From: an uncultured Thermoleophilia bacterium | Lineage (GTDB): Bacteria > Actinomycetota > Thermoleophilia > UBA2241 | Assembly: GCA_963793605.1 (NCBI GenBank) | Contig: CAWCAH010000003.1 | Coordinates: 95,534-159,533 of the forward strand | DNA: 64,000 nucleotides | Direction: 5' to 3' | Shown here: piece after piece, positions 11,307 to 62,485 of the stretch | Numbering within the stretch: the first letter of the stretch is position 1 | Layout of the letters: the number at the start of each line of letters is the position of its first letter | Position numbers and translations under genes: made by a program | The notes under the pieces: generated by a model | Database searches by the model: none | The model's input: only the letters and a program-made list of their open reading frames with translations | Told to the model about the DNA's origin: nothing

Positions 11307-11309
11307 CGC

Positions 11310-13337: not shown

Positions 13338-13339
13338 CG

Positions 13340-13846
13340 ATGACCGACTTCGAACCGCGCATCACCGCCTTCGTCTGCAACTGGTGCACCTACACCGGCG
13401 CCGACCTCGCCGGCACCAGCCGCCTGCACATGGCGAGCAACGTGCGCATCATCCGGCTGCCCTGCACGGGCCGCATCGACCCGCTGTTCATCGTCAAGGC
13501 GTTCGAGCGCGGCGCCGACGGCGTCATCGTCAGCGGCTGCCACCCGGCCGACTGCCACTACACGTCGGGCAACTACCACGCCCGGCGGCGGTTCGCCGTG
13601 TTCCACGACATCATGGAGTTCCTCGGCGTCGACCCGCGGCGCATGACCTTCAGCTGGGTCTCCGCCAGCGAGGGCGCCAAGTGGAAGGACGTCGTCAACG
13701 AGGCCGTGGCCAACGTCCGCGAGCTCGGGCCGTTCGAGGCGTACCGGGCGCTGGCGCCCGACGCCGTGGAGCCGTGGCCGGCCGCCACCGACGGCCTGGC
13801 GGCAGCCGGCGTCCCGGCTCCCGCCACCGAGGAGGTGGCGTCATGA
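13340..13846 (+). CDS. mvhD: MvhD/FlxD-like methyl-viologen-reducing hydrogenase delta subunit homolog
   Basis: ITAFVCNWCTY...IRLPCTGRIDPLFIVKAFERGADGVIVSGCHPADCHY is the MvhD signature. Lies immediately after hdrA. Confidence 0.88.
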   Translation: MTDFEPRITAFVCNWCTYTGADLAGTSRLHMASNVRIIRLPCTGRIDPLFIVKAFERGADGVIVSGCHPADCHYTSGNYHARRRFAVFHDIMEFLGVDPRRMTFSWVSASEGAKWKDVVNEAVANVRELGPFEAYRALAPDAVEPWPAATDGLAAAGVPAPATEEVAS

Positions 13847-14760: not shown

Positions 14761-15901
14761 GTACCTCCGCTCCTTCATCTCAGAGAGCGACCTGCGCGGG
14801 CTCGCCGCCGACCTGCTCGGCGCGGGCACCGGCGTCGTCGCGCCCGTCGCCACCGACATCTGCCAGTCGCCGGCGGCCGTCGCCGCCACGGCCTGCAGCC
14901 TCGACCACTCGCTGGTCACCATCGACTACAGCGCCATCACCTCGGCCGACGAGATGGACCTCTCGCGCGCTCTGCCGCAGCTCTCGCTCAAGCAGTTCTT
15001 CCTGCCCGAGCACGAGGCGCTGTGCCGCTGGAAGCAGAGGGGCACCACGTTCGAGGTCGAGGAAGTGCCGACCGAGTTCGCCCCGCGCGTCGTCCTGGGC
15101 GCCAAGCCCTGCGACGCGGCCGCGCTCGCGGTCGTCGACAAGGTCATGAACTGGGACTACGAGGACGAGCTGTGGAACGGCCGCCGCGCCGCCACGACGG
15201 TCATCAACCTCACCTGCCCCATGATCGACGACAGCTGCTTCTGCACGGCCGTCGGGGCGGCGCCGGACGACGTCAAGGGCGCCGACGGCCTGCTCACGCC
15301 GGTCGACGGCGGCTACGTGTACGAGCCGGCGACCGACAAGGGCAAGGCCCTGGTCGAAGGCCACAAGGCGCGCTTCACCGCCGACGTGCCGGCCGACACC
15401 CTCGGCCGCCAGGCCGACGACGAGCGGGCGGCGGCGCGCGAGCGCGTCGCCGGCAACCTGGAGATCGACGCGGCCAGCGTGCGCGACTGGATCGACACGC
15501 ACTTCGAGGACCCGCTCCTGACGCAGCTCGCCATGCGCTGCAACGGCTGCGGCGCCTGCACGGGCGTCTGCCCCACCTGCCACTGCTTCGACATCGTGGA
15601 CGAGGAGGAGGGCGTCGGCCGCGGCACCCGCCGGCGCTGCTGGGACACCTGCCAGTCGCCGGTGTTCACGCTGCACGCCAGCGGTCACAACCCGCGCGAC
15701 AACCAGCACGTGCGCTACCGCCAGCGCATCAACCACAAGTTCGCCGTGTACCCGCTCAAGTTCGGCGAAGTGCTCTGCACCGGCTGCGGCCGCTGCACCC
15801 GGGTGTGTCACGCGGGTCAGGACCTCGTCGAGATCCTGCAGGCCATCGACATCGCCGCCCGCCGACCCCGAGACGCCGAGCCCGCGGAGGCCGCCTCGTG
15901 A
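14693..15901 (+). CDS. AsrA/FlxB-like 4Fe-4S protein; start uncertain
   Basis: CNGCGACTGVCPTCHCFD and CTGCGRCTRVCHAG motifs. The conserved N-terminus seems to begin near 14762 (YLRSFISESDLRGL). The only in-frame ATG is 14693, which gives a 68-nt overlap. GTG 14757 would fit if one base were missing. Confidence 0.65.
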   Translation: MTPRSRRRSATTASTTSRSSSSEYLRSFISESDLRGLAADLLGAGTGVVAPVATDICQSPAAVAATACSLDHSLVTIDYSAITSADEMDLSRALPQLSLKQFFLPEHEALCRWKQRGTTFEVEEVPTEFAPRVVLGAKPCDAAALAVVDKVMNWDYEDELWNGRRAATTVINLTCPMIDDSCFCTAVGAAPDDVKGADGLLTPVDGGYVYEPATDKGKALVEGHKARFTADVPADTLGRQADDERAAARERVAGNLEIDAASVRDWIDTHFEDPLLTQLAMRCNGCGACTGVCPTCHCFDIVDEEEGVGRGTRRRCWDTCQSPVFTLHASGHNPRDNQHVRYRQRINHKFAVYPLKFGEVLCTGCGRCTRVCHAGQDLVEILQAIDIAARRPRDAEPAEAAS

Positions 15902-16729
15902 ACATCTACCAGCCACTGCTCACCACCGTCGCCGAGATGGTGGACGAGACCTCCGACACGCGCACGCTGAAGCTCGAGTTCCAGGACGACGCCGTGCGCG
16001 AGAGCTTCAACTTCAAGGCCGGCCAGTTCGGCGAGTACGGCGTGTTCGGCGCCGGCGAGAGCACGTTCTGCATCGCCAGCTCGCCGACGCGCGAGGGCTA
16101 CATCGAGTGCAGCTTCAAGAGCATCGGCAAGGTGACGAGCGCCCTGCGCGAGGTCAACGTCGGCGACACCGTCGGCTTCCGCGGCCCCTACGGCAACTGG
16201 TTCCCCGTGGACGACTGGAAGGGCAAGGACGTCGTGTTCGTCGCCGGCGGCATCGGCCTGGCGCCGGTCCGCTGCGTGATCTGGAACGTCCTGGACCGGC
16301 GCGACGAGTTCGGCGACGTCACTATCGTCTACGGCGCCCGCTCCGTCGACGACCTGGTGTACAAGCGCGAGCTGGAGGAGTGGGGCTCGCGCCCGGACGT
16401 CAAGATGGTCAGCACGGTCGACCCCGGCGGCGAGACCAAGGACTGGAAGGGCGAGGTCGGCTACGTCACGCCCATCGTGGAGAAGACGGCGCCGAAGGCC
16501 GACAACGCCGTCGCCGTGCTCTGCGGGCCGCCGATCGTCGATCAAGCTCACGATGCCGGTGCTGGAGAAGCTCGGGTTCGCCGACGACGCGATCTTCACC
16601 ACCCTCGAGAACCGCATGAAGTGCGGGCTCGGCAAGTGCGGCCGCTGCAACATCGGCCCCGTGTACGTCTGCAAGGACGGGCCCGTCTTCACCGCCGCCC
16701 AGATGAAGGAACTGCCGCCGGAGTTCTGA
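15898..16729 (+). CDS. FAD/NAD(P)-binding 2Fe-2S oxidoreductase (AsrB/FlxA/PyrK-like); one frame break near 16540
   Basis: GTGA overlap with the previous gene. FNFKAGQFGEY...GPYGNWF...VFVAGGIGLAPV is a ferredoxin-reductase fold. After ...AVLCGPPIV the frame changes. The protein continues IKLTMPVLEKLGF...RMKCGLGKCGRCNIGPVYVCKDGPVF (2Fe-2S motif) to the TGA at 16727-16729. Confidence 0.75.
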
Positions 16730-16767
16730 GCCGGACGCTCCGGCGCCTCGGCGCTGACCTCAAAACG

Positions 16768-16806
16768 GCGATGCGGCCGGCAGCCTCTCGGCGCCGGCCG
16801 CATCGC
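16768..16806 (+). terminator. GC-rich hairpin after the hdr/flx cluster
   Basis: GCGATGCGGCCGGC-(11 nt)-GCCGGCCGCATCGC forms a 14-bp perfect stem, 39 nt after the flxA-like stop. There is no clear T-tract. Confidence 0.5.
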
Positions 16807-22252: not shown

Positions 22253-23689
22253 TCAGGGCGCCGGCACCACCGCGTCGAGCTGCTCGACGATGCCCTCGGG
22301 CAGCGACGCGACCTCGTGCGTCGCCAGGAGCTCGAGCGCCCGCCGGCGCGCCTTCTCGGTCGCGTCCAGCGCGCCGCCCTCGGCCCAGCGGTCGTAGCTG
22401 GCGCGGTTCAGGATCTTGCCGCGCCACTGCTCCTCGCGCAGGTGCTTGCGCGTGTGCCGCTGGCCGAGATAGTCGCCGCCGGGGCCGACGGCCTTGAGCA
22501 CGTCGACGGCCAGCGTCTCGTCGTCGACCTCTATCGGCCTGAGCAGGTGCCGGTTGCGGCTGATGAACTCGGCCACCAGGACGACCTCGGCGAGGGAGCC
22601 GGAGAGGCCGAAGTCCATGTAGCCCACGTCATGGTTGAGGTTGGCGCCCAGCTGCATGGAGAGCTTGGTGATCTCGTCGGCCTCCATGCCCGCCTGGGCG
22701 TCCACCACCTGCGCGTCGGTGTGGCCGCTGAACCCCCAGTTGGGGATGTCCAGCCACTTGGCCATCTCGCACTCCAGCGCGTACGCGCGGATGAACTCCG
22801 GCGAGTTGTACGACGACTGCGACGTCGCCATGTCGAGCGTGTTGGGGCCCTGGCCGATGACGAACGGGGCCCCCGGCGCACGCAGCTGGTGCATCACCAG
22901 GCCGAACAGCGCCTCGGCGATACCGAGGGTGATCTGGCCGGGCGTTGTGATCGGCGCGGTGCCGCCGGCGACCGGCGACGGGCAGTACGTGGACGGCACG
23001 CCCTTGTCGGCGCAGAAGAGCAGCTTGTCGACCGTCTCGTAGGGGTGCTTGAGCGGCGTGACCGGCTGGTTGTACATGATGAAGTACGGCTTGTCGCGAA
23101 GCGCCTGCTCGCCGCCGCGGACGGCGCAGGCCATGCGCCACATGGGCTCTACGGTCTCGACGCCGCCGGCGGTCATCACGAGCGGCTTGGTGGTGGCCGG
23201 GATCATCGCGCGGAACTGCTTGGGGTAGGCCTCCTGCGCGTCCATGCCGTCCGGGTACGCGCCCGACATGACGAAGTCGAGCTCGGGCAGCGAGTCGCAG
23301 AGGCGGGCCGCCTCGGCCACGTCCGCCATCTTGCCGAGGCGGCGCTCCCCGGTCTCGAGGTCGTGCAGGTGCATGACGTCCGAGCCGTTGCCGAAGTAGC
23401 TGCGGCGACCACCGAGGTCCATGGCGGGCTCGCCGGCGCGGTCGTAGACCACGAAGCTCGCCGGCACGGACTCACGCGCCTGCTCGACGAGCGCGGCCGG
23501 CACGTGCACGAGGCCGTCCGCGTCCCTGGTACAGCCGCCGTCCAGCATCACCTGCTCGCCCTCTTCGTGGAGGACGATCATGCCCATCTCCGAGAGGATG
23601 CCGAGGGCCGCGTCGTAGATGCGCCGCTTCTGGTCCTCGTTGAGGAAGCTGACGCGCCCGGCGCCGATCTCCTTGCTGCTGTCTGCCAT
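22253..23689 (-). CDS. MttB-superfamily methyltransferase, non-pyrrolysine paralog (quaternary amine:corrinoid methyltransferase-like)
   Basis: ATG 23689 follows GGGAG. Collinear with the other MttB-family genes here. His occupies the position of the Pyl codon (NWGFSG-H-TDAQVVDAQAG). No internal stop. Confidence 0.85.
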   Translation of the reverse strand: MADSSKEIGAGRVSFLNEDQKRRIYDAALGILSEMGMIVLHEEGEQVMLDGGCTRDADGLVHVPAALVEQARESVPASFVVYDRAGEPAMDLGGRRSYFGNGSDVMHLHDLETGERRLGKMADVAEAARLCDSLPELDFVMSGAYPDGMDAQEAYPKQFRAMIPATTKPLVMTAGGVETVEPMWRMACAVRGGEQALRDKPYFIMYNQPVTPLKHPYETVDKLLFCADKGVPSTYCPSPVAGGTAPITTPGQITLGIAEALFGLVMHQLRAPGAPFVIGQGPNTLDMATSQSSYNSPEFIRAYALECEMAKWLDIPNWGFSGHTDAQVVDAQAGMEADEITKLSMQLGANLNHDVGYMDFGLSGSLAEVVLVAEFISRNRHLLRPIEVDDETLAVDVLKAVGPGGDYLGQRHTRKHLREEQWRGKILNRASYDRWAEGGALDATEKARRRALELLATHEVASLPEGIVEQLDAVVPAP

Positions 23690-23777
23690 GGTCACTCCCG
23701 GAGCGAGATTGCCGACGAGGCGGCCCCGGACTGCTGCGCCGGGGGCCGCCTCGCCGAACACTACACTGTTTGCGGAG

Positions 23778-25247
23778 CTACTTCACTCCGAGTTCGTTCT
23801 CCGCGGCAGCGATAATCGACTTAAGTTCTGCCGAGACGCCCTCCGGCAGCGGCTCCGGCTGGTGCGTCTCCAGGATCCGCCGGGCCTCGGCGAGCGAACG
23901 GTCGTACAGCGTGGTCGACCCGGCGGCGGTCCACTCCTCGCGGACCCGCCGGTCGATGAGCTTCGAGCTCGACTGCCCGCGCATACCGGCGTACGTGTCG
24001 TCGTGCGAGAGGAAGTCCTTGAAGGGACCGATCTCGGCGATGACGTCGACCGACAGCGTCGCGTCCGTGACCGGGATGCCCGGCACGGTGAACTTGACCA
24101 TGCGCGCGAACTCCGCGTCCATGACCAGCTGCGCGTAATCGATGGTGACGCCCGACTCCAGCATCCCCAGCCCGTAGATCAGGTTGGCCCCTGCCAACGC
24201 CGGCAGCAGGCTGGTGATCGTCTTCTCGTGACCGGATTGGGCGTCCGCCACTTTGGAGTCGCCCTACGCACCGGCCACCCAGCTGGGCAGCAGGTAGAAG
24301 CGCGCGAGGCAGGCGACCCCGGCCCCGATCATGCCGCACTCGGGGCTGCCGACCGAGGCGCTGGCGAAGCGCAGGTCCAGCGCGGTCGTCGATGAGCCGT
24401 AGATGACCGGCGCGCCCCTCTTCGTGAGCTGCGCCAGCGTGATGCCGCTGAGCACCTCGGCGTTGTGCGTGACGAGCGTGCCGGCGAGCGAGACGGGAGA
24501 GGAGCCGCCGGCCATCGCCATGCTGAGCACGTTGACGGGGATGCCGGCGCGAGCGCCCTCGATGATGATCTCGCAGGCGTCCTTGACCAGCTTGAGCGGG
24601 CTCACCGGGCAGGTGAGGAAGCTGAGGATCGGGCGGCGGCGCAGCTGCTCCCGCCCCCCGACGATGGCCGCGGCCATGTCGATCATCTTGCGCGCGCAGA
24701 AGCCGCTGAGCGGGCCGATGGTCGCGTGCTTGGTGGTGTTGCTGAAGATCGCCTCGGCGTTGTGCAGCGCGGCCGTCTCCGGCGGCGCGTCGTGGGCGCC
24801 GAGCGGCCGCTCGACCACGTCGATCTCCGGCAGTGCGTCGATGATCTTCGTACAGTCGGCGACGTCCTGCTTGCGGCTCTCGTGCAGCTCGCCGGTGTAC
24901 GGGTCGACGACCTGGATGCCCTCGCCGAAGTTGGTGAAGCCGACCCGGCCGTCCTCGAGCACGACGTCCCTGGCCGGGTCGCGACCGCACAGGACGACGG
25001 TGGAGGGCGCCGAGCGGAGGGCGTCCTCGACGAGGTGCGCCGGCAGGCGCACCACGTTCTGCTCGCCGTCGACCTCGGCGCCGGCCGCCGCGAAGATCTC
25101 ACGGGCCTCGTCGTCCTCGACGAAGACGCCCGTGCGCGACAGCACTTCGAGCGTCGCGCCGTGGATCTCCCGCAGCTCGTCCTCCGTGAACACCTCGAGC
25201 CTGAAACCGCCGCTCTTGCGCGCTCCCGCGCGCGGGTTCCTTCTCAT
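23778..25247 (-). CDS. mttB: Trimethylamine:corrinoid methyltransferase with an in-frame TAG (putative pyrrolysine) at codon 328
   Basis: Track ORFs 24264..25247 and 23778..24251 are in the same frame. They are separated by TAG (plus-strand cta, 24264-24266) plus 4 sense codons. Joined product is 489 aa: ...ARFYLLPSWVAGA-TAG-GDSKVADAQSGHEK.... GAGGAGG RBS before ATG 25247. Confidence 0.85.
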
Positions 25248-25469: not shown

Positions 25470-26096
25470 CTACCCCACCAGCTCCTTCGCCCGCTCCACC
25501 GCCATGCCGGCGTTGGCGCCGTAGCCGTCGGCGCCGATCTCCTCGGCCCAGGCGGCCGTGACCGGGGCGCCGCCGACCATCACCTTGACGCTCTCGCGCA
25601 GGCCGGACTCCTTGAGACGCGCGATCGTCTCGGCCATGTGCGGCAGGGTGGTCGTGAGCAGGGCGCTCATGCCGACGATCTGCGGCTGGTGCTCCCGCAC
25701 GGCGGCGACGAAGGCCTCGGCCGTGACCCCGGTGCCGAGGTTGACGACCGTGAAGCCGGCGCCCGAGAGCAGCATGCCGACGAGGTTCTTGCCGATGTCG
25801 TGCAGGTCGCCCTCGACGGTGCCGATGACGACGGTTCCGAAGCCCGAGCCCTCGCCCTCGGCCATCAGCGGGCGCAGCAGGTCGAGGCAGGCCTGCATCA
25901 CCCGCGCGCTGAGCAGCACCTCGGGGATGAAGCACTCGCCCTCGCGCATGCGCGCTCCGACGACGTCCATGCCCGGCAGGAGCGCCTCGTCGAGGATCTC
26001 GCGCGGCGCCGCGCCGCTCGCGACGAGCGCCTGCGTCATCGCCAGGGCGACGGCCTCGTTGCCGTCGATGATGGACTGCTTGAGCTGGTCTTTCAT
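25470..26096 (-). CDS. Corrinoid (B12-binding) protein of the methylamine methyltransferase system (MtbC/MttC-like)
   Basis: 208 aa. B12-binding-2 helical cap followed by the DxHxxG motif (GDLHDIGKN) and SALLTTT...VMVGGAPV. Sits between mtbB and mttB. TAG stop. Confidence 0.9.
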   Translation of the reverse strand: MKDQLKQSIIDGNEAVALAMTQALVASGAAPREILDEALLPGMDVVGARMREGECFIPEVLLSARVMQACLDLLRPLMAEGEGSGFGTVVIGTVEGDLHDIGKNLVGMLLSGAGFTVVNLGTGVTAEAFVAAVREHQPQIVGMSALLTTTLPHMAETIARLKESGLRESVKVMVGGAPVTAAWAEEIGADGYGANAGMAVERAKELVG

Positions 26097-26101: not shown

Positions 26102-27496
26102 TCAGCCTCCCGCCGTGCGTTCCTTGAACTTCTCGACACTGTTGATCGGCACGTCCAGCACACGGGCGATGTTGAACTTCGCCTCGATCTGGTTGGCCTG
26201 CCACGGCTGGCTGATCGCGTAGCTGTGCACGCGACCGAACCCGTGCTCGTTGCGCACGTCGGTCATCACGACCGGGTCGGAGAGATCGAACGGTGTCACG
26301 CCGAGCTTGTCGGCGACGTACTGCTTGGCTTCCTTGAGGCGCATGCCCCGAGTCATCTGCATACGGGCAACCAGGTCTCCGGCTGCGCGAATACCGCCGA
26401 TGCTCGCGGCTTGTGCGTGGGCGTTGTGCATCCCGTGGGGATCGCCCGAGCCCACCTACAACCCGTCGACGTGCAGCAGTTCGACGAAGGACTTCGCCGC
26501 GCGGCAGACAGCGTCGGAAGGCAGATGGACGAACATCGGCACGCCGCCGACGCCCATACCGGCGTTGGGGTGCACGGGGATCGTCGCCACCTCCATGCAC
26601 GGCTTGATGAGAGCGATCGTGCGCGCCATGTTCCAGGCGAGCGACTTGCCCGTGTTGATGTTGACCACAGGGCCGAACATGGTGGCGCCGGCCTCCTGGG
26701 CCAGCAGCAGCTGGTCCTTGGGCCACAGGCCGGCGAGGCGCTTGCCGCCCCACTCGAGCTCACCGTGCATGCCGAGCACGAACTCGCCGGCCATGCCCAG
26801 CTCGACGCCCATGTCCGGGTACTTCTCGCGGATGATCTTGGTGGCGCGCAGGGCGGCGAGGAACTCCGGGTCGCCCGAGGCGCCGGTGGTGTCCCAGTCG
26901 AGCGCGTCGGCTCCGGCTTCCCACTGCGAGTCGGCGAGCTTGACCATGTCGACCACGGCCATCTCGATCGCTTCTTCCTCAGCCTCCCGGGCCTCGGCGA
27001 TCTTGCCGAGCGGGAGCAGCTCGTTCCAGTTGTCGCAGGGGCCGTCGGGCTTGGAGTAGAGGCCGAGGTTGGTCATGACGCCGTACTGCAGCGGCGCGAT
27101 GGTCGCGAGCTGGGCGTCGTGCATGTACTGCGCCTCATAGGCGAGGATCGTGCGTACGACCTTGAGTGAGTAGTCGCCGACGCAGAGCTCGAGCAGGTCG
27201 GCGCCCATCCACTGCTCGTAGCTCTGCAGGTCCTGGATGCGGGTCGCGTGCGTCTTCATGCCGGTGCCGTCGCAGCTGAGGACGATCTCCTCGCCGACGT
27301 CGACGCCGATGAAGCGCAGCGGCGACGCGTAGATCTCGAGCAGGTGGTCGATCTCGTCGTCGGTCAGCAGCGGCACCTTGGCGCGCTTGGCCGCCACCTC
27401 CGAGCCGGCGACGAGATCCGCCCGGATCTCACTGCGCGTCAGCTGCGTGAAGGTACCGTCGCCCATGCGGGTCGGTATCCTGGGCTCGTTCGTCAT
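26102..27496 (-). CDS. mtbB: Dimethylamine:corrinoid methyltransferase with an in-frame TAG (putative pyrrolysine) at codon 347
   Basis: Track ORFs 26456..27553 and 26102..26455 abut in the same frame, separated only by TAG (plus-strand cta, 26456-26458). Joined product is 464 aa: MTNEPRIPTRMGDG...NAGMGVGGVPMF...ELLHVDGL-TAG-VGSGDPHGMH...AAGDLVARMQMTRGMRLKEAKQYVADKLG. It is collinear with MtbB as I remember it. Confidence 0.88.
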
Positions 27497-27605: not shown

Positions 27606-28562
27606 TCAGCAACTGCTCGTCTCGCCCGTCGCGCGCGGCATGGACTCGAGGTACTCCTCGAGAGTCTCGGGGAATCCCGGGGCTCGCAGGTCGGTGCCGC
27701 AAGCCTCCTCGAGGAGCTTCGCGACCATGGCGTACTCGGCCGCGCCGCCGTAGCGGGCGCGGCCGCGGATGAACAGCTGCTCGGCGGTGCCGGCGATGTC
27801 CAGCGGCACGTCGAGGTCGCGGCCGAGCATCATGGCCACGCCGAGGTCCTTGAGGCACAGGTCGAACGAGAAGCCGACATCGTAGCTGCCGCCGAGGATG
27901 GTCGTGCTCTCCGTCTCGAGGATGAAGCTGTCGCCGGAGCTCGCGCGCAGGATCTCCCACGCCAGTCGCAGGTCGATGCCGCTCCGCTTGCACAGCATGA
28001 GCGCCTCCGCCGACGCCGCGATGTGGATGAAGGCCAGCATGTTGGACACGACCTTGATGCTCGACGCCTTGCCCAGTGCGCCCACGTAGAAGACGCTGCC
28101 GCCGACGGCGCGGAACACGCCCTCGTAGGTCCGGAAGACGGCCTCGTCGCCGCCGACGAGCACGGTGATCGTCCCGGAGGCGGCATTGTGCACACCGCCC
28201 GTGACCGGCGCCTCGAGCGTGTGGACGCCGCGCTCGTCCAGCAAGCCGCTGAGACGCTGCAGCTCACGCGGGTCGTTGGTGCTCATCTCGATCCACGCGG
28301 CGCCCGGCGCGAACCCCTCGAGCAGGCCGTTCGCGCCGGTGACGACGTCGGCGACCGCGGCGACGGACGGCAGACAGGTGATGACGGCGTCCGAGGCGCG
28401 GGCGGTCGCGGCCGGCGACGAGGCCCACTCCGCGCCCGACTCCAGGAGCCCCCCGGCCGCCTCACGGTCGAGGTCGTGGACGGTGACGTCGAACCCGGCG
28501 GACAGCAGATTCGCGGCAAGGTGGTGCCCGATGTGCCCAAGGCCGATGCAGCCGATCCTCAT
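27606..28562 (-). CDS. NAD(P)-dependent 3-hydroxyacid dehydrogenase (HIBADH/6PGDH-like family)
   Basis: MRIGCIGLGHIGHHLAANL Rossmann N-terminus. ...LEAPVTGGVHNAASGTITVLVGG...GKASSIKVVSNML is typical of the family. Confidence 0.85.
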   Translation of the reverse strand: MRIGCIGLGHIGHHLAANLLSAGFDVTVHDLDREAAGGLLESGAEWASSPAATARASDAVITCLPSVAAVADVVTGANGLLEGFAPGAAWIEMSTNDPRELQRLSGLLDERGVHTLEAPVTGGVHNAASGTITVLVGGDEAVFRTYEGVFRAVGGSVFYVGALGKASSIKVVSNMLAFIHIAASAEALMLCKRSGIDLRLAWEILRASSGDSFILETESTTILGGSYDVGFSFDLCLKDLGVAMMLGRDLDVPLDIAGTAEQLFIRGRARYGGAAEYAMVAKLLEEACGTDLRAPGFPETLEEYLESMPRATGETSSC

Positions 28563-29077
28563 GGCGTCACGTCCTGAAGCGGCTCCACACCGACGTCCTC
28601 GCCCGCCCACTCGAAGTTGGTCGTGTCCGTGCGCAGGATGTGCCAGGTGTCTGTGTACGCGATGCCCTCGATCTGGTCGAGGTCCTCGTTGAGGAACCTG
28701 TAGAGAGCCTCGTTGTCGGGCAGGTGCACCTCGATGAGGATGTCGAAGGAGCCCGTGGTGTAGCCGATGTAGGCTATGTTCTTCATGGCCGCAAGGCGCT
28801 CGCCCACGCCCCTGCCGTACCCGCGGTTCACGCGGATGCCGACCATCGCGTCCACGGGCAGACCGATCGCCGCCGGGTTCACGCCGGTCCAGGGCAGCAC
28901 GGCTCCCCGCTTGATGAGACGGTCCACACGATTGCGGACCGTCGGCTCCGTGACGCCGATGGAGCGCGCGATGCTGGCGTAGGACCGGCGCGCATTGGGC
29001 CGCAGCAGCTTGAGGATGCGGCGGTCCAGGTCGTCCAGCCGGCTCGTTCCGAAGGGCGCCTGCCCCCATCTGATCAT
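28559..29077 (-). CDS. Lrp/AsnC family transcriptional regulator
   Basis: LDDLDRRILKLLRPNARRSYASIARSIGVTEPTVRNRVDRL HTH followed by an RAM-type domain. ATGA overlap with the downstream dehydrogenase. Confidence 0.85.
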   Translation of the reverse strand: MIRWGQAPFGTSRLDDLDRRILKLLRPNARRSYASIARSIGVTEPTVRNRVDRLIKRGAVLPWTGVNPAAIGLPVDAMVGIRVNRGYGRGVGERLAAMKNIAYIGYTTGSFDILIEVHLPDNEALYRFLNEDLDQIEGIAYTDTWHILRTDTTNFEWAGEDVGVEPLQDVTP

Positions 29078-29180: not shown

Positions 29181-29319
29181 AGAAGCAACGGTGTCTTGGC
29201 GATTCCGCCTTGCGAAACACTGCTTCACAGTCTACAGTGCCCCGGAAACGTGCGGCCGGGCGTCGGACTCCCCGCACGATACGCGCCCCACGAGGGCCCA
29301 CACGAACGGCGAGGGATCC

Positions 29320-30768
29320 ATGAGAGCGAAGACGGTGTGGCTGAGCGAGTCGGAGAAGAGTGCGATCGTCGACGAGGCTCTGGAGTTGCTCGCCGGCGTC
29401 GGCATCCGGCTCGCGGGGTCGTCGGTGCTGCCGCTGCTGTCGGAGCGCGGCGCCACGGTCGACACGGAGACCGGTATCGCGCGCCTGCCGCGCGAGCTCG
29501 TCGAGTGGGCGCTCTCACAATGCCCGCGCGCGGTCCGGCTGGCCGGCGCGACGCCCGACGACGACGTGCTGCTGGCGGAGGGCGAGCCCTTCCACTTCGC
29601 GAACAGCGGCTGCGTCGCCAAGACGCTCGACTTCCGCACCGGCGTCAGACGCGCCAGCACCCTGCAGGACCTGCGCGAGGGCACAGGCCTCCTCGACGAG
29701 CTGTCCGAGCTCGACGTGGTGTGGACCATCGTGAGCGCGTCCGACGTGCCCGTCGAGCAGCGCGAGCTCGTCGAGTACTTCGCGCTGCTCACCGAGACGA
29801 CCAAGCACGTCACCTTCGTGGACCCGCCGGACGACCCGGTCGCGGTCGGCCGCATCTGCGAGGTGCTCGGCGGCGACCTCGTCCGGTTCCGGGAGCGGCC
29901 GAGGATCTCGACCGTGCTCACGGCGGCGTCTCCCCTGCAGATCGACGGCCCCGCACTGGACATCCACATCGCCCTGGCCCGTCACGGTGTGCCCGTCCAC
30001 GCGTACTCCATGTCCATCGCCGGCGCCACCTCGCCGGTGACCCTGGCAGGGTCGGTCGTGCAGGGCGTGGCCGAGTTCCTGGGAGCCGCGACGGCGCTGC
30101 AGGTCGCGGCGCCCGGCGCCCGCCTCATCTTCTGTTTCGGCTCGGGTGTGCTGGACATGCTGCGCACGACGTTCTCCATGGGCAACATCGAGAGCGCGCA
30201 GATGGGCGCCATGGCCACCGAGGTCGGTCACTACCTCGGCGTGCCGACGCTCAACCCGGGGATGTCGACGGACGCAAAGCACGCCGGCCTGCAGGCGGGC
30301 TACGAGAAGGCCCTGAAGCTCGGCGCGGTCTGCACGGCGAGTCCGGACATCGTCACCGGGTGGGGGCTGATGGACTCGCACAACACCATGTTCCTGCCGC
30401 AGTCGGTGGTGGACAACGAGATGGCGGCCATGGTCCGGCGGCTCAACGCCGAGGTCGAGGTGTCTCACACCACGCTGGCGGCCGACTCTATCGGCAGGGT
30501 GGGTCCGGGCGGAGGGTTCCTCGGCGAGCGCGAGACCGCCAAGCGGATCCGGGCCGGGGAGCACTACCTGCCGACGGTGTCGAACCGCCTGTCCTTCGAG
30601 AAGTGGGCGGAGGAGGGCGCGACCGAGAACGACACCGCAGAGGCCCAGGTCGAGAGCCTTCTCGCCCGGCACCTGGAGCAGCCCTGTCTGGCTGCGGACC
30701 AGATCGACGACCTCGCCGCGGTCTGCGGCGTCGACGAGGCCAGCGTGCGCCGCGCCCGGCGCGACTGA
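29320..30768 (+). CDS. MttB-superfamily methyltransferase, non-pyrrolysine paralog
   Basis: 482 aa, collinear with the MttB family. Ser occupies the Pyl-equivalent position (NPGM-S-TDAKHAGLQAG). Confidence 0.85.
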   Translation: MRAKTVWLSESEKSAIVDEALELLAGVGIRLAGSSVLPLLSERGATVDTETGIARLPRELVEWALSQCPRAVRLAGATPDDDVLLAEGEPFHFANSGCVAKTLDFRTGVRRASTLQDLREGTGLLDELSELDVVWTIVSASDVPVEQRELVEYFALLTETTKHVTFVDPPDDPVAVGRICEVLGGDLVRFRERPRISTVLTAASPLQIDGPALDIHIALARHGVPVHAYSMSIAGATSPVTLAGSVVQGVAEFLGAATALQVAAPGARLIFCFGSGVLDMLRTTFSMGNIESAQMGAMATEVGHYLGVPTLNPGMSTDAKHAGLQAGYEKALKLGAVCTASPDIVTGWGLMDSHNTMFLPQSVVDNEMAAMVRRLNAEVEVSHTTLAADSIGRVGPGGGFLGERETAKRIRAGEHYLPTVSNRLSFEKWAEEGATENDTAEAQVESLLARHLEQPCLAADQIDDLAAVCGVDEASVRRARRD

Positions 30769-31886: not shown

Positions 31887-32667
31887 GTGACCGAGATCGG
31901 CGACTTCGCGCTGGACTACTTCTCCCTCAAGGGGACGCACTGCCATCGTCACCGGCGGCAACACGGGTCTCGGCCAGGCGTTCGCGGTGGCGCTCGCGGC
32001 CGCCGGGGCCAACCTCTTCGTGCCCAGCATCATGGACGACGACGGCACCACCGGCCCCCTGGTAGAGGAGCGCGGCGGCCGCTACGAGTTCGTCAAGGCC
32101 GACGTGACCGCGCCGGGCGCCCCGGCCGAGATCGTCGCCGCGTGCGTCGAGCGGCTCGGCTCGCTCGACATCCTCGTCAACAGCGCCGGCATCTGCCCGC
32201 TGGCGAGCGTGCTCGAGTTCGGCCGCGCGCAGTGGGACGCCACCGTGGCCGTGAACCTCACGGCCGCCTTCGAGATGGCCTACGAGTCCGCCAAGGTCAT
32301 GGTCCCGCAGGGCTCCGGCAAGATCATCAACATCTGCTCGCTGTTCTCGTTCCTGGGCGGCCGCTGGTCGTCCGCGTACGCGGCCACCAAGCATGGTCTG
32401 GCCGGCTTCACCAAGGCCTACGCCGACGAGCTGGCCGAGTCCGGCATCCAGGTCAACGGCATCGCGCCCGGCTACTACGCCACGGAGATCACGACGGCCA
32501 CACGCAGCGACCCGGTGACCAACCAGCGCGTGCTGGACCACATCCCGGCCGCGCGCTGGGGCGACCCCGCCGACCTCATGGGCGCCACCGTGTTCCTGGC
32601 GAGCAAGGCCTCCGACTACGTCAACGGCCACGTCCTGACCGTCGACGGCGGCTACCTCGTCCGCTAG
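31887..32667 (+). CDS. Short-chain dehydrogenase/reductase (KduD/FabG-like); one frame break near 31935
   Basis: GTG 31887 follows AAAGGAG. VTEIGDFALDYFSLKG is followed, after one extra base, by RTAIVTGGNTGLGQAFAVALAAAGA (TGxxxGxG), then NSAG, YAATKHGL (YxxxK) and PGYYATE. TAG stop. Confidence 0.8.
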
Positions 32668-32685
32668 GGCGGGGAGGATACGGAC

Positions 32686-34116
32686 ATGGCCGGCAAGTAC
32701 CTCATCGGCATCGACAACGGCACGCAGAGCACCAAGGTGGTCATCTACGACCTCGACGGCAACGTGGTCTGCGAGGCACGGCGCACGCTGCTCCCCATGG
32801 AGCACCCCCAGCCGGGGTACGCGGTCCACCCCGACGACGACCTCTGGGAGTCCATCGTCGCGGCCAGCCGCGAGGCGATGACGCAGTTCCCCGGCGACCC
32901 CGAGGACATCCTCGGCGTCGGACTGTGCACCATCCGCTGCTGCAAGACGTTCCTCAAGGCCGACGGCAGCCTGCTCGAGCCCGTCATGAGCTGGATGGAC
33001 ACGCGCGCCTACCAGCCCTGGCTCCCGGACGACCCCGAGCTCGCCTGGGCCACCACCTCGTCCGGCTACATCACCCACCGGTTCACCGGGGAGTTCCGCG
33101 ACAGCGCCGCCAACAACATCATCCTGCAGTGGCCCATCGACACCGACACGTGGCAGTGGGACCCGGCGCTGTTCCCGGAGTTCAACATGCGCCCGGAGCT
33201 GCTCGTGGAACTGCAGATGCCGGGCGACGTCGCCGGGTACGTCACGGCGGAGGCGGCGGCCGCGACCGGCATCCCGGAGGGCCTGCCGGTCGTCACCACC
33301 GCCAACGACAAGGCCGTCGAGGCGCTCGGCTCCGGCTCGCTCGACGAGCGCACGGCGCTCATCTCCCTGGGCACCTACATCGCCTCCATGGTGCACGGCC
33401 ACAAGAACCGTCAGGACGCGGTCGACTTCTGGACCAACTTCGCCTGCGTCCCGAGCCGCTACCTCTACGAGAGCGGCGGCGTGCGCCGCGGCATGTGGAC
33501 GCTCAGCTGGTTCCTCGACCTGCTCGGGCCGGAGCTCGCCGCGGCCGCGGCGAGCCAGGAGACCTCGCGCGAGGTGTACCTGGAGCGCGAGGCCGAGCTG
33601 GTCCCCGCAGGGAGTTGCGGCCTCATGACGGTGCTGGACTGGCTCGCCCCGACGGACAAGCCCTTCCGCAAGGGCGAGATCATCGGCTTCGACGCGCGCC
33701 ACACCCGGGGCCATGTCTACCGGTCCATCCTCGAGGCGATCGCCCTGACGATGAAGCAGAACGTGGACGCCATGTGCGCCGAGCTGGGCATCGACCTGCG
33801 CGAGATCGTCGTCTCCGGCGGCGGCGCCAACAGCCCGCTCTTCATGCACATCTTCGCCGACGTGTTCGGCGTGCCGGCCTCGCGCAACATCGGCAGCAGC
33901 GGCGCCAGCCTGGGCGCCGCCATCTGCGCCGCCGTCGCCACCGGCGTGTACCCGGACTTCGAGACCGCCTCGGCCGCCATGCGCAGCAGCCGCGAGTCGT
34001 TCGCCCCGGGGCTCGAGAACCACGACGTGTACCGGCGCATGAACGAGAGCGTGTACCGCGCCATCCACGACGCCACCGACCCCATTCTCGAGCAGTCCTT
34101 CACCATCTTCCACTGA
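32686..34116 (+). CDS. FGGY-family carbohydrate kinase (xylulokinase/glycerol kinase-like)
   Basis: 476 aa. YLIGIDNGTQSTKVVIYD N-terminal phosphate-1 motif and the C-terminal VSGGGANSPLFMHIFADVFG motif. Confidence 0.85.
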   Translation: MAGKYLIGIDNGTQSTKVVIYDLDGNVVCEARRTLLPMEHPQPGYAVHPDDDLWESIVAASREAMTQFPGDPEDILGVGLCTIRCCKTFLKADGSLLEPVMSWMDTRAYQPWLPDDPELAWATTSSGYITHRFTGEFRDSAANNIILQWPIDTDTWQWDPALFPEFNMRPELLVELQMPGDVAGYVTAEAAAATGIPEGLPVVTTANDKAVEALGSGSLDERTALISLGTYIASMVHGHKNRQDAVDFWTNFACVPSRYLYESGGVRRGMWTLSWFLDLLGPELAAAAASQETSREVYLEREAELVPAGSCGLMTVLDWLAPTDKPFRKGEIIGFDARHTRGHVYRSILEAIALTMKQNVDAMCAELGIDLREIVVSGGGANSPLFMHIFADVFGVPASRNIGSSGASLGAAICAAVATGVYPDFETASAAMRSSRESFAPGLENHDVYRRMNESVYRAIHDATDPILEQSFTIFH

Positions 34117-35597: not shown

Positions 35598-35700
35598 CGC
35601 CGACGTAGGATGGAGCCGGGCCGGCCGACGGCCGGCCCGTGAGCACCGCCGGCGCGCTCATCGTCCACCGGCGGCCCATGCCCGCAAGCGAGGAGCGCGG

Positions 35701-40376: not shown

Positions 40377-40400
40377 GTCCCCCCTGAAGGAGTCGTCACC

Positions 40401-41855
40401 ATGAAAGACCTGCCCGTCGTCGGCATCGAGAGCCGCCTGCGCATGCTCTCAGACGAGAAGTGCCAGAAGATCTACGACGCCGCCCTCACGATCATCGCCG
40501 AGATCGGCATGACCGTCCCGCACGCCGAGGCGCGCGAGATGCTGGTCAGCGGCGCCGGCGCCACTGTCGAGGCCAACGACGTCGTCAAGATCCCGCGCGA
40601 CGCCGTCGCCGCCGCGCGCGACACGATCCCCGAGATGATCCACGTGTACGACCGCAACGGCGAGCTCGCCATGCAGCTCGGCGGCACCAACTCGTTCTTC
40701 GGCACCGGCTCGGACCTGATGAGCATCTACGACTTCGAGACCGGCGTGCGCCGTCCCAGCGTGCTCGCCGACACGGCTCGCATGGCGCACCTCTGCGACG
40801 GCCTCCCGAACATCGACTTCATCATGTCGGCCGCCCACCCGCACGACATCGAGGCCTACGCCTCGTACCTCGAGTGCTTCCGCGTGATGGTCAGCAACAC
40901 GACCAAGCCGATGGTGATGACCGCGGCCGGCGTCGAGGACCTCGAGGTCATGCAGAAGATCGCCGCCGCCTTCCGCGGCGGCGAGGACGAGCTTCGCGCG
41001 AAGCCGTACTTCATCCAGTACGGCGAGCCCGTGAGCCCGCTGCAGCACGCGCCCGAGGTGCTCGACAAGATGCTGCTCTGCGCCGACAAGGGCATCCCGC
41101 TCATCTACTCGCCGGCGCCGATCGCCGGCGCCACGGCGCCGATCACCATCGCCGGGCACATCGTGCAGGCGGTGGCCGAGTCGCTCTTCGGCGCCGTGAT
41201 CCACCAGCTGCGCGTCCCCGGCGCCCCGCTGCTCACCGGCATGGGCCCGGTCAAGCTCGACATGAACACGGTCCAGGCGCTCTACAACTCGGCCGAGTAC
41301 TACCCCACCATCATGGGCATCACCGAGATGGCCAAGTGGATGGACATCCCCAACTGGGGCTACGCGGGCACCAGCGACTCCCAGTGCGTGGACATCAACG
41401 CCGGCATCGACATCACCGAGCTCACCCTCATCTCCATGCAGGCCGGCTCCAACCTCAACCACGACATCGGCTACCTCGACTTCGGCCTCACCGGCGCCGG
41501 CGAGCTGGTCGTCATCGAGGATGAGGTCATCTCCATGAACCGGCGCGTGCTCGAGGGCATCGAGGTCACCGACGAGACGCTCGGCCTCGACGTCATCGAG
41601 GAGGCCGGCCACGGCGGCGACTTCCTGCGCGCCCGCCACACCAAGAAGTTCGTCCGCGGCCTGCAGTGGAAGCCCACCCTGCTCAACCGCGACACGCAGA
41701 AGAACTGGGAGGCCGCCGGCTCCAAGACGGCCACCGAGAAGGCGCACGAGAAGCTGCTCGACATCATGGCCAACCACACGCCCGAGCCGCTCACGGCCGA
41801 GCAGAAGCAGGTCATGGACGAGCTGGTCGACGCGTACGTCGCGGCCGGCAAGTAA
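40401..41855 (+). CDS. MttB-superfamily methyltransferase, non-pyrrolysine paralog
   Basis: 484 aa, closely parallel to the 22253-23689 product. Thr occupies the Pyl-equivalent position (NWGYAG-T-SDSQCVDINAG). TAA stop. Confidence 0.85.
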   Translation: MKDLPVVGIESRLRMLSDEKCQKIYDAALTIIAEIGMTVPHAEAREMLVSGAGATVEANDVVKIPRDAVAAARDTIPEMIHVYDRNGELAMQLGGTNSFFGTGSDLMSIYDFETGVRRPSVLADTARMAHLCDGLPNIDFIMSAAHPHDIEAYASYLECFRVMVSNTTKPMVMTAAGVEDLEVMQKIAAAFRGGEDELRAKPYFIQYGEPVSPLQHAPEVLDKMLLCADKGIPLIYSPAPIAGATAPITIAGHIVQAVAESLFGAVIHQLRVPGAPLLTGMGPVKLDMNTVQALYNSAEYYPTIMGITEMAKWMDIPNWGYAGTSDSQCVDINAGIDITELTLISMQAGSNLNHDIGYLDFGLTGAGELVVIEDEVISMNRRVLEGIEVTDETLGLDVIEEAGHGGDFLRARHTKKFVRGLQWKPTLLNRDTQKNWEAAGSKTATEKAHEKLLDIMANHTPEPLTAEQKQVMDELVDAYVAAGK

Positions 41856-41883
41856 GGACGCGCGGCAAGAGGGGATCACGACA

Positions 41884-41917
41884 GGGACGGCGGCCGGCAG
41901 GCCGCCGTCCCTTTCTC
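41884..41917 (+). terminator. Rho-independent-type terminator/attenuator hairpin
   Basis: GGGACGGCGGCC-GGCA-GGCCGCCGTCCC followed by TTTCTCC, 29 nt after the stop at 41855. The next MttB gene starts only 23 nt later. Confidence 0.6.
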
Positions 41918-41939
41918 CACAGCACTCCAAGGAGACGAC

Positions 41940-43346
41940 TTGACCGGACCAGCCCGCAGCGTGCTCGACGACCGCAGTTGTCGCAAGATCCACGAGGCGG
42001 CCCTCCAGCTCCTCGAGCGGGTCGGCTGCGCCGTGCTCGACCCCGAGGCGCTCGCGCTGTTCAAGCAGCACGGCGCGAGCGTGGACGACGACCGCGTCCG
42101 CTTCGGCGATGCCCTCGTCGAGCAGGCGCGGGCCACCGCGCCGGCTCGCTACGTGGTCGCCGGCCGGCGCCCGGAGCTCGACCTGCACGTCGGGCTCGGC
42201 GAGCCGGCCGTGCTGGCCAGCGCCTCCGGCCCGCCCTTCGTCCTCGCGGACGGCGCGCAGCGGCCGGGCACCCTGGCCGACCTCACCACCGCGGTGCGCC
42301 TCGCGCACCTCTCCCCCAACATCGACGTGCTGGGCTACAGCGTGGAGCCGAACGACGTGCCCGAGGACGGTCGCGCCCCAAGGTCGTCGCCCACCTCCAC
42401 GCGACCTCGAGCGACAAGAACGCGCGCTTCACCGTCACCTCGCTCGAAGAGCTCAAGGTGGCCACGGACGTGCTCGAGATCCTGTACGGCGCCGACTGGC
42501 ACACGCGGCGCGCGCCTCTGGTCGGTGATCAACACCACCTCGCCGCTGCAGTTCTCGGCGGAGGGAGCGCAGGTCGCGCTGCGCCTCGCGCGCCTGGGCC
42601 AGCCCGTCCTGGTCGCGGTCTGCGCCATGGGCGGGACCACCGCGCCCATCACGCTGGCCGGCCTCCTCGCCGTGCAGCACGCCGAGCTGCTGGTCGGCCT
42701 GGTGCTCACGCAGCTCGCCAATCCAGGGACGCCGTTCCTGTACGGCGGCACCTCGTCGCTCTCGTCCATGCAGAGCGGCGCGCTCATGATCGGCGCGCCC
42801 GCGTACTGGGCGCTCATGGAGGCCACCGTGCTGCTCGGCCACTGGCTGGGCGTCCCGGTGCGCGCCGGCGGCTCCGTGACCGACGCGCACGTGCCCGACG
42901 CCCAGGCCGGCATCGAGTCGGCGCTCGCCGTGGACACCGTCCTGCGCACCGGCGCCCAGTACGTGCTGCACTCCGCCGGCATCCTCTCGTCGTTCAACTG
43001 CTACTCGCCGGAGAAGTTCGTGATCGACGACGAGGTGCTGAGCGGCATCCGCGTCGCCCGACGGCCCATCGAGGTCGACGACGAGACGCTCGCGCTCGAC
43101 GTCGTCGAGGCGGCGGGACCGGGCGGCACGGTGCTCGGTCACGCGCATACGCGCAAGCACGCGCGGGACGGCGTGCGGCGGACGATCATGAACCGCGCGC
43201 CCTACGAGACCTGGCGGGCCCAGGGCGGCAGAGACCTGGCTGCCGCGGCGGCGGCGCGCGTGACGGAACTTCTGGGTTCGTACGAGCCGCCGGACGACCT
43301 GGACCCGGTGGTCCGGCGGCAGCTCGACGCCTACTGCCTCGGCTGA
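41940..43346 (+). CDS. MttB-superfamily methyltransferase, non-pyrrolysine paralog; two compensating frame breaks (about 42379 and 42524)
   Basis: TTG start follows AAGGAG. Between the breaks the sensible sequence KVVAHLHATSSDKNARFTVTSLEELKVATDVLEILYGADWHTRRAPLV is in another frame. Val occupies the Pyl-equivalent position (AGGS-V-TDAHVPDAQAG). Confidence 0.75.
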   Translation: MTGPARSVLDDRSCRKIHEAALQLLERVGCAVLDPEALALFKQHGASVDDDRVRFGDALVEQARATAPARYVVAGRRPELDLHVGLGEPAVLASASGPPFVLADGAQRPGTLADLTTAVRLAHLSPNIDVLGYSVEPNDVPEDGRAPRSSPTSTRPRATRTRASPSPRSKSSRWPRTCSRSCTAPTGTRGARLWSVINTTSPLQFSAEGAQVALRLARLGQPVLVAVCAMGGTTAPITLAGLLAVQHAELLVGLVLTQLANPGTPFLYGGTSSLSSMQSGALMIGAPAYWALMEATVLLGHWLGVPVRAGGSVTDAHVPDAQAGIESALAVDTVLRTGAQYVLHSAGILSSFNCYSPEKFVIDDEVLSGIRVARRPIEVDDETLALDVVEAAGPGGTVLGHAHTRKHARDGVRRTIMNRAPYETWRAQGGRDLAAAAAARVTELLGSYEPPDDLDPVVRRQLDAYCLG

Positions 43347-61028: not shown

Positions 61029-61090
61029 TGAGGGTGCGCGACGGTGACCCGTGAGCAGTCCTCGATGATCATGACAGGTGGAGGTAGACG

Positions 61091-62485
61091 GTGGGCAAGC
61101 CGGCCATCCGGGTGTGGGACACGGAGGAGTGCGAGCTCGTACACGAAGCGACCTTGCGTGTCCTCTCGGAGTGCGGGGTCGAAGTGATGTGGGGACCGGC
61201 GCTCCGACGCTTCGCGGAGGCGGGCGCGAAGATCGACGGCAACCGGGTCAGGCTGAGCGCGGAGCTCGTGAACGAGGCCCTTGCGTCCGCCCCTCGCACG
61301 TGGTCTGTGAGATCGAGGGGCCGTGACGAAGTGCTGGAGCTCAAGGACGGCCCCACGTACTTCGGCTCGGGATCCGACTGCCTGTACATCACCGACCCGG
61401 ACACGGGCCGACGGCGCAGAGCCGTCGTGGACGACATCGAGGCCCTGGCGAGCCTGTGCGAGAAGCTCGAGAACATCGACTTCGTCATGTCGATGGGATT
61501 CCCCGAGAACGTGCCGCCCGAGTCGGAGGTGCTTCACCAGCAGGTCGCCCTGCTCAAAGGCACGCGCAAGCCACTTCTCATCGTGCCCCGGGACGGTCAC
61601 ACCCTGGCTACGATGAAGGCGATGGCCGAGGCCTGCGGCGGCGGTGACAGCCTCATCGTCTACGGCATGCCGTCGCCGCCGCTGATGCACGACGAGTTCG
61701 CCCTCTCCAAGATCGAGACGTGCGCCGAACTGATGATCCCGCTCGTCTACGCGCCCGCGCCGACGGCGGGCTCCACCGCACCCGCCTCCATCGCCGCCGT
61801 CGTGGTCACCGGGAACGCGGAGGTGCTGAGCGGCCTCGTCCTGCATCAACTCGTGAACCCCGGAGCTCCGTTCGTCTACGGAGCCGGGTGCGACACGCTG
61901 GACATGCGGACGATGGTCAATCCCTACGTCTCGCCGGAATGGTCCATGGGCTGCCAGGCGGGCTGTGATCTGGCTCGCTTCTACTCGCTGCCGAGCTTCT
62001 CCTACGGCGGGTATTCCGATGCCAAGATGCTGGACGAACAGTGGTCGGCCGAGACCGCGATGACCGCCGTCATGGGCGCCCTCTCGCGGGGTACGCTCCT
62101 GCACGACGTCGGCTATCTCGAGATGGGGATGCAGACGTCCTTCGAGTCCATCGTGCTCGGCGATGAGCTCGCCGGCTTCGCCAAGGCGTGCCTGCGCGAT
62201 ATCGCCGTGGACGACGAGGCTCTCGCCGTCGACGAGATCATCGCGGTCGGGCCCGGCGGCAACCACCTGCCTCGTCGCTACACCCGCAAGCACTATCGTG
62301 AGTTCTGGACGCCCAGGCTGCTCGACAAGGCCCCGCACGATCGCTGGCAGAGCAACGGCGCGACATCGCTGAAGCAGCGCGTCCAGCAACGCGTCGCCGA
62401 GCTACGGGCGGAGCCGCCTCGCTTCGTCCTCGACGACCACGCCCTCGGGGATATTCAAAGCCTGCTGCGAAGCGCCGCTGTGTGA
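61091..62485 (+). CDS. MttB-superfamily methyltransferase, non-pyrrolysine paralog
   Basis: 464 aa. GTG start follows GGTGGAGG. Collinear with the MttB family. Tyr occupies the Pyl-equivalent position (SYGG-Y-SDAKMLDEQWS). Confidence 0.85.
   Translation: MGKPAIRVWDTEECELVHEATLRVLSECGVEVMWGPALRRFAEAGAKIDGNRVRLSAELVNEALASAPRTWSVRSRGRDEVLELKDGPTYFGSGSDCLYITDPDTGRRRRAVVDDIEALASLCEKLENIDFVMSMGFPENVPPESEVLHQQVALLKGTRKPLLIVPRDGHTLATMKAMAEACGGGDSLIVYGMPSPPLMHDEFALSKIETCAELMIPLVYAPAPTAGSTAPASIAAVVVTGNAEVLSGLVLHQLVNPGAPFVYGAGCDTLDMRTMVNPYVSPEWSMGCQAGCDLARFYSLPSFSYGGYSDAKMLDEQWSAETAMTAVMGALSRGTLLHDVGYLEMGMQTSFESIVLGDELAGFAKACLRDIAVDDEALAVDEIIAVGPGGNHLPRRYTRKHYREFWTPRLLDKAPHDRWQSNGATSLKQRVQQRVAELRAEPPRFVLDDHALGDIQSLLRSAAV

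Follow-up and report, generated by a model that had tools for sequence, protein, structure and literature searches.

Does the amber codon inside an mttB-like gene of a soil Thermoleophilia bacterium mark a broken or divided gene, or is it decoded as pyrrolysine (Pyl), as in the trimethylamine:corrinoid methyltransferase MttB of Methanosarcina barkeri? The question arises from a stretch of 64,000 nucleotides, hereafter the window (uncultured Thermoleophilia bacterium, GenBank assembly GCA_963793605.1, contig CAWCAH010000003.1, positions 95,534 to 159,533), and the comparisons of sequence described below indicate that its gene at 23778..25247 on the minus strand very probably encodes a Pyl-type MttB. 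The open reading frame (ORF) 25247..24264 starts with ATG, encodes 327 residues and stops at the TAG at 24264-24266, which is followed by GGC GAC TCC AAA (GDSK in the protein) and then, in the same frame, by the listed ORF 24251..23778 of 157 residues. The joined frame of 489 sense positions holds one in-frame TAG as codon 328, exactly as an earlier note on this DNA had described, and reads ...ARFYLLPSWVAGA-TAG-GDSKVADAQSGHEK... across the site. The GC content of third codon positions in this frame is 0.95 before the TAG and 0.91 after it, and the two halves thus have the appearance of coding sequence in a single register. Two independent ENA assemblies (ERZ25039462, contig_30352, and ERZ25039596, contig_2619) both hold the identical 327-residue ORF and its 157-residue continuation, and by coordinate arithmetic the window corresponds to about positions 76667-140666 of the former contig (178,639 bp).

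The joined product was assigned to the Pfam family MTTB (PF06253, E = 1.7e-88), the membership expected by the earlier note, and it scored 739.5 bits over profile positions 1-469 of 469 against the NCBIfam equivalog TIGR02369 ('trimeth_pyl'), a model of Pyl-type MttB (EC 2.1.1.250) with a curated cut-off of 525 bits. The best PDB match was M. barkeri MttB (7XCL/7XCM, E = 5e-124), and, when an X was put at the TAG, query position 328 aligned with the X at residue 334 of 7XCL. This residue is Pyl334 of the M. barkeri structure (PMC9842639), and the codon number 334 given in the earlier note is therefore correct. Pyl334 is surrounded by Gly110, Tyr364 and Met249 (PMC9842639), all of which are conserved in the alignment, as G108, Y358 and M243 of the window protein. 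The other five MttB-family genes of the window (Table 1) scored between 258 and 349 bits on TIGR02369, with H, S, T, V and Y at the Pyl column and with the Tyr364 equivalent replaced by His or Thr. That these five carry ordinary residues and that 23778..25247 is the only Pyl-type MttB present, both previously claimed, was thus borne out. Because its codon at the Pyl column is TAG, the gene was not placed in the non-Pyl MttB superfamily, unlike its five paralogues.

A high degree of conservation of the amber codon was observed among relatives. When 5.8 billion proteins were searched, over 70 relatives of 69-95% identity proved to have been truncated by gene callers at 326-329 residues, which places the cut at the same TAG. 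A scan of one genome per GTDB species yielded 80 loci with mttB relatives of 55-96% identity, nearly all of them in metagenome-assembled genomes (MAGs) of Thermoleophilia, Actinomycetota or 'Actinomycetes' from soil, peat and lake sediment, such as the Stordalen Mire MAGs bog_752, palsa_645, palsa_647 and fen_672, together with a few Desulfobacterales. TAG occupied the column of codon 328 at every one of the 80 loci. The GDSK segment behind it is conserved as protein across all relatives, with SDAK as the counterpart in M. barkeri, and the frame closes 160-164 codons past the TAG in all 25 orthologues compared. Over the 160 codons downstream of the TAG, synonymous changes outnumbered non-synonymous ones by 28 to 13 in one relative (L001) and by 35 to 20 in another (L014). 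An invariant TAG at the exact column combined with mostly synonymous downstream changes is not a matter of chance and excludes a nonsense mutation or sequencing error, in agreement with the earlier view that a random nonsense mutation was unlikely.

The gene is part of a minus-strand series with short gaps, comprising a regulator, a dehydrogenase, mtbB, a corrinoid protein, mttB and the non-Pyl paralogue, and the order mtbB(TAG)-corrinoid-mttB(TAG) is conserved among relatives. The joined MtbB passed TIGR02368 ('dimeth_PyL') with 404.8 bits against a cut-off of 369.1, and its TAG lies at its own conserved column in all 62 homologues from the fetched loci. The earlier note had described a second, independent TAG at the homologous catalytic position in the same operon; the codon is indeed present, but its position is not homologous, as mtbB belongs to another family (PF09505/TIGR02368), and no solved MtbB structure exists with which to place it. 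With two independent conserved UAGs in one operon, the argument of the note still stands. Two codons of mtbB that are rare for 70%-GC genomes were also observed near its UAG, namely a Gly codon 26 codons past it, which is GGA in 58 of 58 distinct sequences, and the Leu codon directly before it, which is TTG in 47 of 52. The best NCBIfam matches of the corrinoid protein are MtgC, pyl_corrinoid and MtbC.

Several observations weigh against the decoding of codon 328 as Pyl. No tRNA was detected by ARAGORN in the 64-kb window, and tblastn with the PylSn, PylSc, PylB, PylC and PylD of the Desulfobacteraceae locus L044 gave no match in the window and, in the 10-kb flanks of the mttB loci, no pyl genes in the other 79 loci, including those of Thermoleophilia. 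The corrinoid protein stays below the curated NCBIfam cut-offs (194.6 against 215.3 bits for pyl_corrinoid), and neither a methylcorrinoid:tetrahydrofolate methyltransferase nor a RamA-type activase was found among the Pfam-annotated genes of the window, a scan which leaves a few right-hand ORFs outside. Finally, TAG also serves as an ordinary stop in three of 35 confident window genes, including as the terminator of mttB itself. Among the 60 loci scanned with ARAGORN, a tRNA-Pyl was found in L044 only, where pylT-Sc-B-C-D-Sn lies about 5 kb from mttB.

The pyl genes were, however, found on related contigs. A PylSc profile search of cluster representatives led to the high-GC representative P0248, whose relatives include proteins named by NCBI 'pyrrolysine--tRNA(Pyl) ligase large subunit [Thermoleophilia bacterium]' and '[Actinobacteria bacterium]'. 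Two loci of 70-72% GC (L086 and L087) carry pylSc, pylSn, tRNA-Pyl(CUA), pylD, pylC and pylB within about 8 kb, with a PylSc of 285-286 residues encoded directly behind an amidase gene and a PylSn of 109 residues on the opposite strand. A further locus (L085, contig_76141 of MAG MFD00032.bin.1.63) contains pylSc, pylSn, pylT and pylC, and the same contig holds a paralogue of mttB with TAG (L042), while another contig of this MAG holds an 85% orthologue of the window mttB (L026). These related Thermoleophilia contigs show that the lineage has the full set for Pyl decoding and biosynthesis, and the host of the window is predicted to share it. The window itself has no pyl genes; the cassette that the earlier note proposed to search for in the genome is accordingly located only in related MAGs. 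Two lower-GC PylSc matches obtained with the Desulfobacteraceae query (L083 and L084) were rejected as not belonging to the lineage of the window (64.5% GC, MtbB 44% identical).

The Thermoleophilia pyl locus is dispersed (8001-15441 in L086, 8001-16173 in L087 and 8001-11656 in L085). Its pylSc overlaps the end of an amidase_3/PG_binding gene, with pylSn on the opposite strand, followed by a Germane/Gmad2 gene and then by pylT adjoining pylD-pylC-pylB, and a B12-binding protein gene and a second radical-SAM gene are interposed in L086 and L087. At about 12000-16858 of L085, the pyl region (70% GC) borders on DNA of about 30% GC that extends for at least 5 kb and carries a reverse-transcriptase gene. 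This low-GC stretch represents a mobile element or an assembly chimera, and pylB and pylD were not detected in it.

The use of TAG as an ordinary stop has a direct consequence, namely that UAG decoding must be ambiguous, or conditional and regulated, in this lineage, as has been described for other users of Pyl. A reassignment of TAG throughout the genome was rejected, given the three window genes that end in it and the terminal stops of mttB orthologues, which switch between TGA and TAG. Most orthologues end in TGA, whereas the window mttB ends in TAG, and a Pyl-tRNA that read this terminal codon would extend the product by 101 residues before the next stop. In the same way, at 31891-34116 of the window (plus strand) a short-chain dehydrogenase gene stops at a TAG at 32665-32667, which is the only stop that separates it from an FGGY kinase gene in the same frame, and read-through at this codon would fuse the two proteins.

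Three other explanations of codon 328 were considered. By near-cognate decoding or through another suppressor tRNA, a standard amino acid could be inserted at the UAG, and the enzyme would then be free of Pyl and act on a different methylated amine. In full-length homologues with 52-59% identity to the window MttB, Tyr364 is retained and the Pyl column is occupied by Leu, Ala, Trp or Val, which indicates that the fold tolerates ordinary residues there, and two of them use TTG or CTG, one or two steps from TAG. A sense codon would nevertheless be expected to displace a costly UAG, yet the UAG is invariant in 80 genes, the lineage possesses a cognate tRNA-Pyl(CUA) together with PylS, and Tyr364, the partner of Pyl, is conserved, which together leave this explanation very improbable. 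Of these sense-codon homologues (P0008, P0030, P0051, P0076, P0084, P0094 and P0110; loci L037, L038, L071 and L088-L093), those in L037, L038, L071, L088 and L090-L092 share their fetched stretch with a UAG-type mttB, which they directly adjoin in L088, L090/L091 and L092; in the two cases with TTG or CTG, Leu appears to have replaced Pyl recently.

Alternatively, the UAG could terminate translation, with a restart at the GTG at 24251, and the resulting polypeptides of 327 and about 157 residues could assemble into a Pyl-free enzyme. The GTG does lie four codons past the TAG, TAG is a functional stop in the lineage, as seen in the TGA or TAG ends of orthologues, and pyl genes are known from related contigs with none in the window. 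The split would, however, hit the catalytic residue itself and remove it, the GDSK between TAG and GTG is conserved as protein in all relatives and recurs as SDAK in M. barkeri, and a complete pyl set is available in the lineage, so that such a two-part enzyme is equally hard to credit. The weakest explanation is that a random nonsense mutation or sequencing error broke an ordinary MttB-family gene, for which speak the division by gene callers into ORFs of 327 and 157 residues and the indel-type defects of other genes in the assembly, but those defects are frameshifts and not substitutions, the sequence is identical in two assemblies, and the 80 of 80 conservation at the Pyl334 column with purifying selection on the downstream frame effectively refutes it. 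The decoding of codon 328 as Pyl is therefore the explanation retained here.

Besides the amber codon, a second conserved feature was observed in the mttB messages, a candidate hairpin 66 nt past the UAG (Table 1) that is formed by the codons for the peptide ALAGAN, which in the window gene are GCG TTG GCA GGG GCC AAC. The hairpin Ala is encoded by GCA in every one of 73 distinct UAG-type mttB genes and the Leu by TTG in 63 of them, although in these genes GCA and TTG each make up only 5.5% of their own codon family. These rare codons keep the hairpin (consensus G-UUGGC-AGGN-GCCAA-C) in all 83 UAG-type mttB genes examined, from both Thermoleophilia and Desulfobacterales, and the third base of the Gly codon, which lies in the loop, varies freely. 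A dominant codon that ends in A or T, or is TTG, was found in only 5 of 196 columns with a conserved amino acid, and all five lie between -2 and +42 codons from the UAG. The six predicted pairs were formed in 97.5% of the cells compared, against 17-53% in slid controls. Compensatory variants (CUGGC...GCCAG and an A-U closing pair) were present in eight cells, a number reached by none of 500 shuffles; these probably represent about three independent events, which makes the covariation evidence moderate. The same peptide is encoded in eight distinct non-Pyl near homologues; six of these spell it with ordinary GC-rich codons, which disrupt the stem, and the remaining two, in which the stem persists, have at the Pyl column a TTG or CTG that differs from TAG by one or two steps. 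Within the 64-kb window, a single copy of the motif was found. The invariant GGA of mtbB described above is a comparable case of a rare codon. For this comparison, the plasmid collection offered only non-Pyl mttB homologues below 31% identity and the viral collection none.

An element like the PYLIS of mtmB (Rfam RF01982) was not found at the UAG of mttB, as the 141 nt around the codon fold with z = -0.9 relative to shuffles, and the alignment fold there had a covariation term of -0.56 with nothing conserved adjacent to the UAG. Earlier surveys likewise detected no structure shared among bacterial Pyl genes or among mttB genes (PMC1976440, PMC3639795), and the downstream hairpin may be a new observation. 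We consider it possible, though rather doubtful, that the hairpin has a function in cis which is linked to UAG decoding or to the fate of the mRNA; it might then, for example, shift the ratio of Pyl insertion to termination, influence the traffic of ribosomes or affect how stable the mRNA is.

The mechanism proposed for the window enzyme is modelled on the structures of M. barkeri MttB (PMC9842639). The UAG of codon 328 would be read as Pyl by a Pyl-tRNA(CUA) charged by the split PylSn/PylSc synthetase, and PylBCD, the genes of which would lie elsewhere in the genome, would synthesise Pyl. Pyl328, together with Tyr358 and the backbone of Gly108 (Tyr364 and Gly110 of M. barkeri), would bind and activate trimethylamine, of which one methyl group would pass to the Co(I) of the adjacent corrinoid protein, and the neighbouring UAG-containing mtbB would provide the same chemistry for dimethylamine. 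The methyl-corrinoid would presumably be demethylated to tetrahydrofolate by a methyltransferase encoded outside the window.

Compared with known systems, the window MttB is 48% identical over its full length to M. barkeri MttB (7XCL/7XCM/7XCN; Li et al. 2023, PMC9842639), with UAG or Pyl at the same column (328 and 334), the three conserved residues named above, and an adjacent cognate corrinoid protein with the DxHxxG motif. The differences are that the window host is bacterial with 70% GC, that the methyl group presumably goes to tetrahydrofolate and not to coenzyme M, that Thr111 of M. barkeri is replaced by Glu109, and that the pyrrolysyl-tRNA synthetase (PylRS) is fused in M. barkeri, whereas PylSn and PylSc are separate in the lineage of the window host. 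The non-Pyl MttB superfamily (the glycine betaine methyltransferase MtgB, 2QNE/9YCE, and MtcB, MtpB and MtyB) shares the TIM-barrel family PF06253, but has a sense codon at the Pyl column and demethylates quaternary amines.

Bacterial Pyl-type MttB has been known since Desulfitobacterium hafniense and the Olavius symbiont (PMC1976440). The enzymes of Desulfobacterales and of the Olavius delta-1 symbiont (Zhang & Gladyshev 2007, PMC1976440) are 58-60% identical to the window MttB with TAG at the same column, and share the clustering of mttB with mtbB and the division of the synthetase gene into pylSn and pylSc. The pyl genes of the Desulfobacteraceae locus L044, however, lie about 5 kb from mttB, whereas Thermoleophilia have none within 10 kb of the mttB loci examined, and the order differs as well, with pylSc behind the amidase gene, pylSn on the opposite strand and pylT beside pylDCB. 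Within Actinobacteriota, Ellenbogen et al. 2023 (mSystems, PMC10805028) report the expression of Pyl-encoding mttB and mtbB, genes truncated by the amber codon, with the genus Bog-752 among the most active. These Stordalen Mire Actinobacteriota are of the same clade, and TAG lies at the same column in L022 and L025 (86-88% identity) and in L064 and L077 (58-60%); L022 is the MAG bog_752, whose mttB is 88% identical to that of the window with the TAG conserved. The window copy comes from a different metagenome (ERZ25039462/ERZ25039596), with MAGs of the MFD series as the closest, and neither a pyl cassette nor an mRNA element is documented in the passages of PMC10805028 considered here. In addition, PylRS was counted in two Actinobacteria by Guo et al. 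(JBC 2022, PMC9630628), and a literature search for pyrrolysine in Thermoleophilia found no paper on the subject. As Pyl-type mttB and mtbB of Actinobacteriota have been published, the window gene is of a kind already known. Earlier work may not have described the breadth observed here, which extends to 80 species-level genomes in which a MAG often carries two or three copies of UAG-mttB.

The remaining features of the window are listed in Table 1. The inverted repeat behind mttB, after which no T-run was found, may act as a terminator, an attenuator or an mRNA-stabilising stem. In the paralogue at 41856-43346, about 45 codons read as Arg/Ser/Pro-rich junk and the neighbouring frame is protein-like, which implies two compensating frameshifts, and the panB-like and aminotransferase genes (38429-39004 and 39122-40387) look truncated or split; these defects are likely indel errors of long-read assembly, or else mark pseudogenes. 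Elsewhere, a cluster of HdrA-like, MvhD, ferredoxin and FAD-NAD oxidoreductase genes, electron-transfer flavoprotein (ETF) alpha and beta and an aldehyde:ferredoxin oxidoreductase were observed (9523-16800, 35572-37600 and 44217-45743), in addition to ABC transporter genes, and the Hdr, ETF and aldehyde:ferredoxin oxidoreductase genes suggest an anaerobic metabolism with flavin-based electron transfer in the host.

Table 1. Coordinates of mttB, its conserved elements, the surrounding operon and the MttB-family paralogues in the 64-kb window.
Feature	Coordinates	Strand	Remarks
mttB, Pyl-type trimethylamine:corrinoid methyltransferase (predicted)	23778..25247	minus	489 codons plus its own terminal TAG (23778-23780); PF06253, TIGR02369
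In-frame TAG, codon 328, putative pyrrolysine codon	24264..24266	minus	aligns with X334 of 7XCL
Candidate conserved mRNA hairpin, G-UUGGC-AGGG-GCCAA-C	24183..24198	minus	66 nt past the UAG, codons ALAGAN
AsnC/Lrp-type regulator	29077..28559	minus	Pfam, gene calls on L081 (identical to the window)
NAD_binding_2 (HIBADH-like) dehydrogenase	28562..27606	minus	Pfam, gene calls on L081 (identical to the window)
mtbB, Pyl-type dimethylamine:corrinoid methyltransferase (predicted)	26102..27496	minus	in-frame TAG 26456-26458; TIGR02368, PF09505 in both halves
Corrinoid (B12-binding) protein, presumed methyl acceptor MttC/MtbC	25470..26096	minus	208 residues; PF02607 and PF02310; GDLHDIGKN (DxHxxG)
Inverted repeat	23713..23756	minus	15-nt arms, 93% complementary, 14-nt loop; in the 88-nt gap between mttB and the downstream paralogue
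MttB-family paralogue, non-Pyl, directly downstream of mttB	23689..22253	minus	318.5 bits on TIGR02369; His at the Pyl column
MttB-family paralogue	29182..30768	plus	below TIGR02369 cut-off
MttB-family paralogue	40377..41855	plus	below TIGR02369 cut-off
MttB-family paralogue	41856..43346	plus	below TIGR02369 cut-off
MttB-family paralogue	61088..62485	plus	below TIGR02369 cut-off

The mttB of the window is thus one more case of a textbook natural expansion of the genetic code, and it shows how gene callers split such genes. Should the hairpin downstream of the UAG be functional, it would reopen the old question of a bacterial cis-signal that separates a Pyl-UAG from a stop-UAG. UAG-type mttB was observed in at least 80 species-level genomes, mostly of soil and peat Thermoleophilia and often in several copies together with mtbB, so that high-GC Actinomycetota may use Pyl to remove substantial amounts of tri- and dimethylamine in soils, where they would compete with methylotrophic methanogens.

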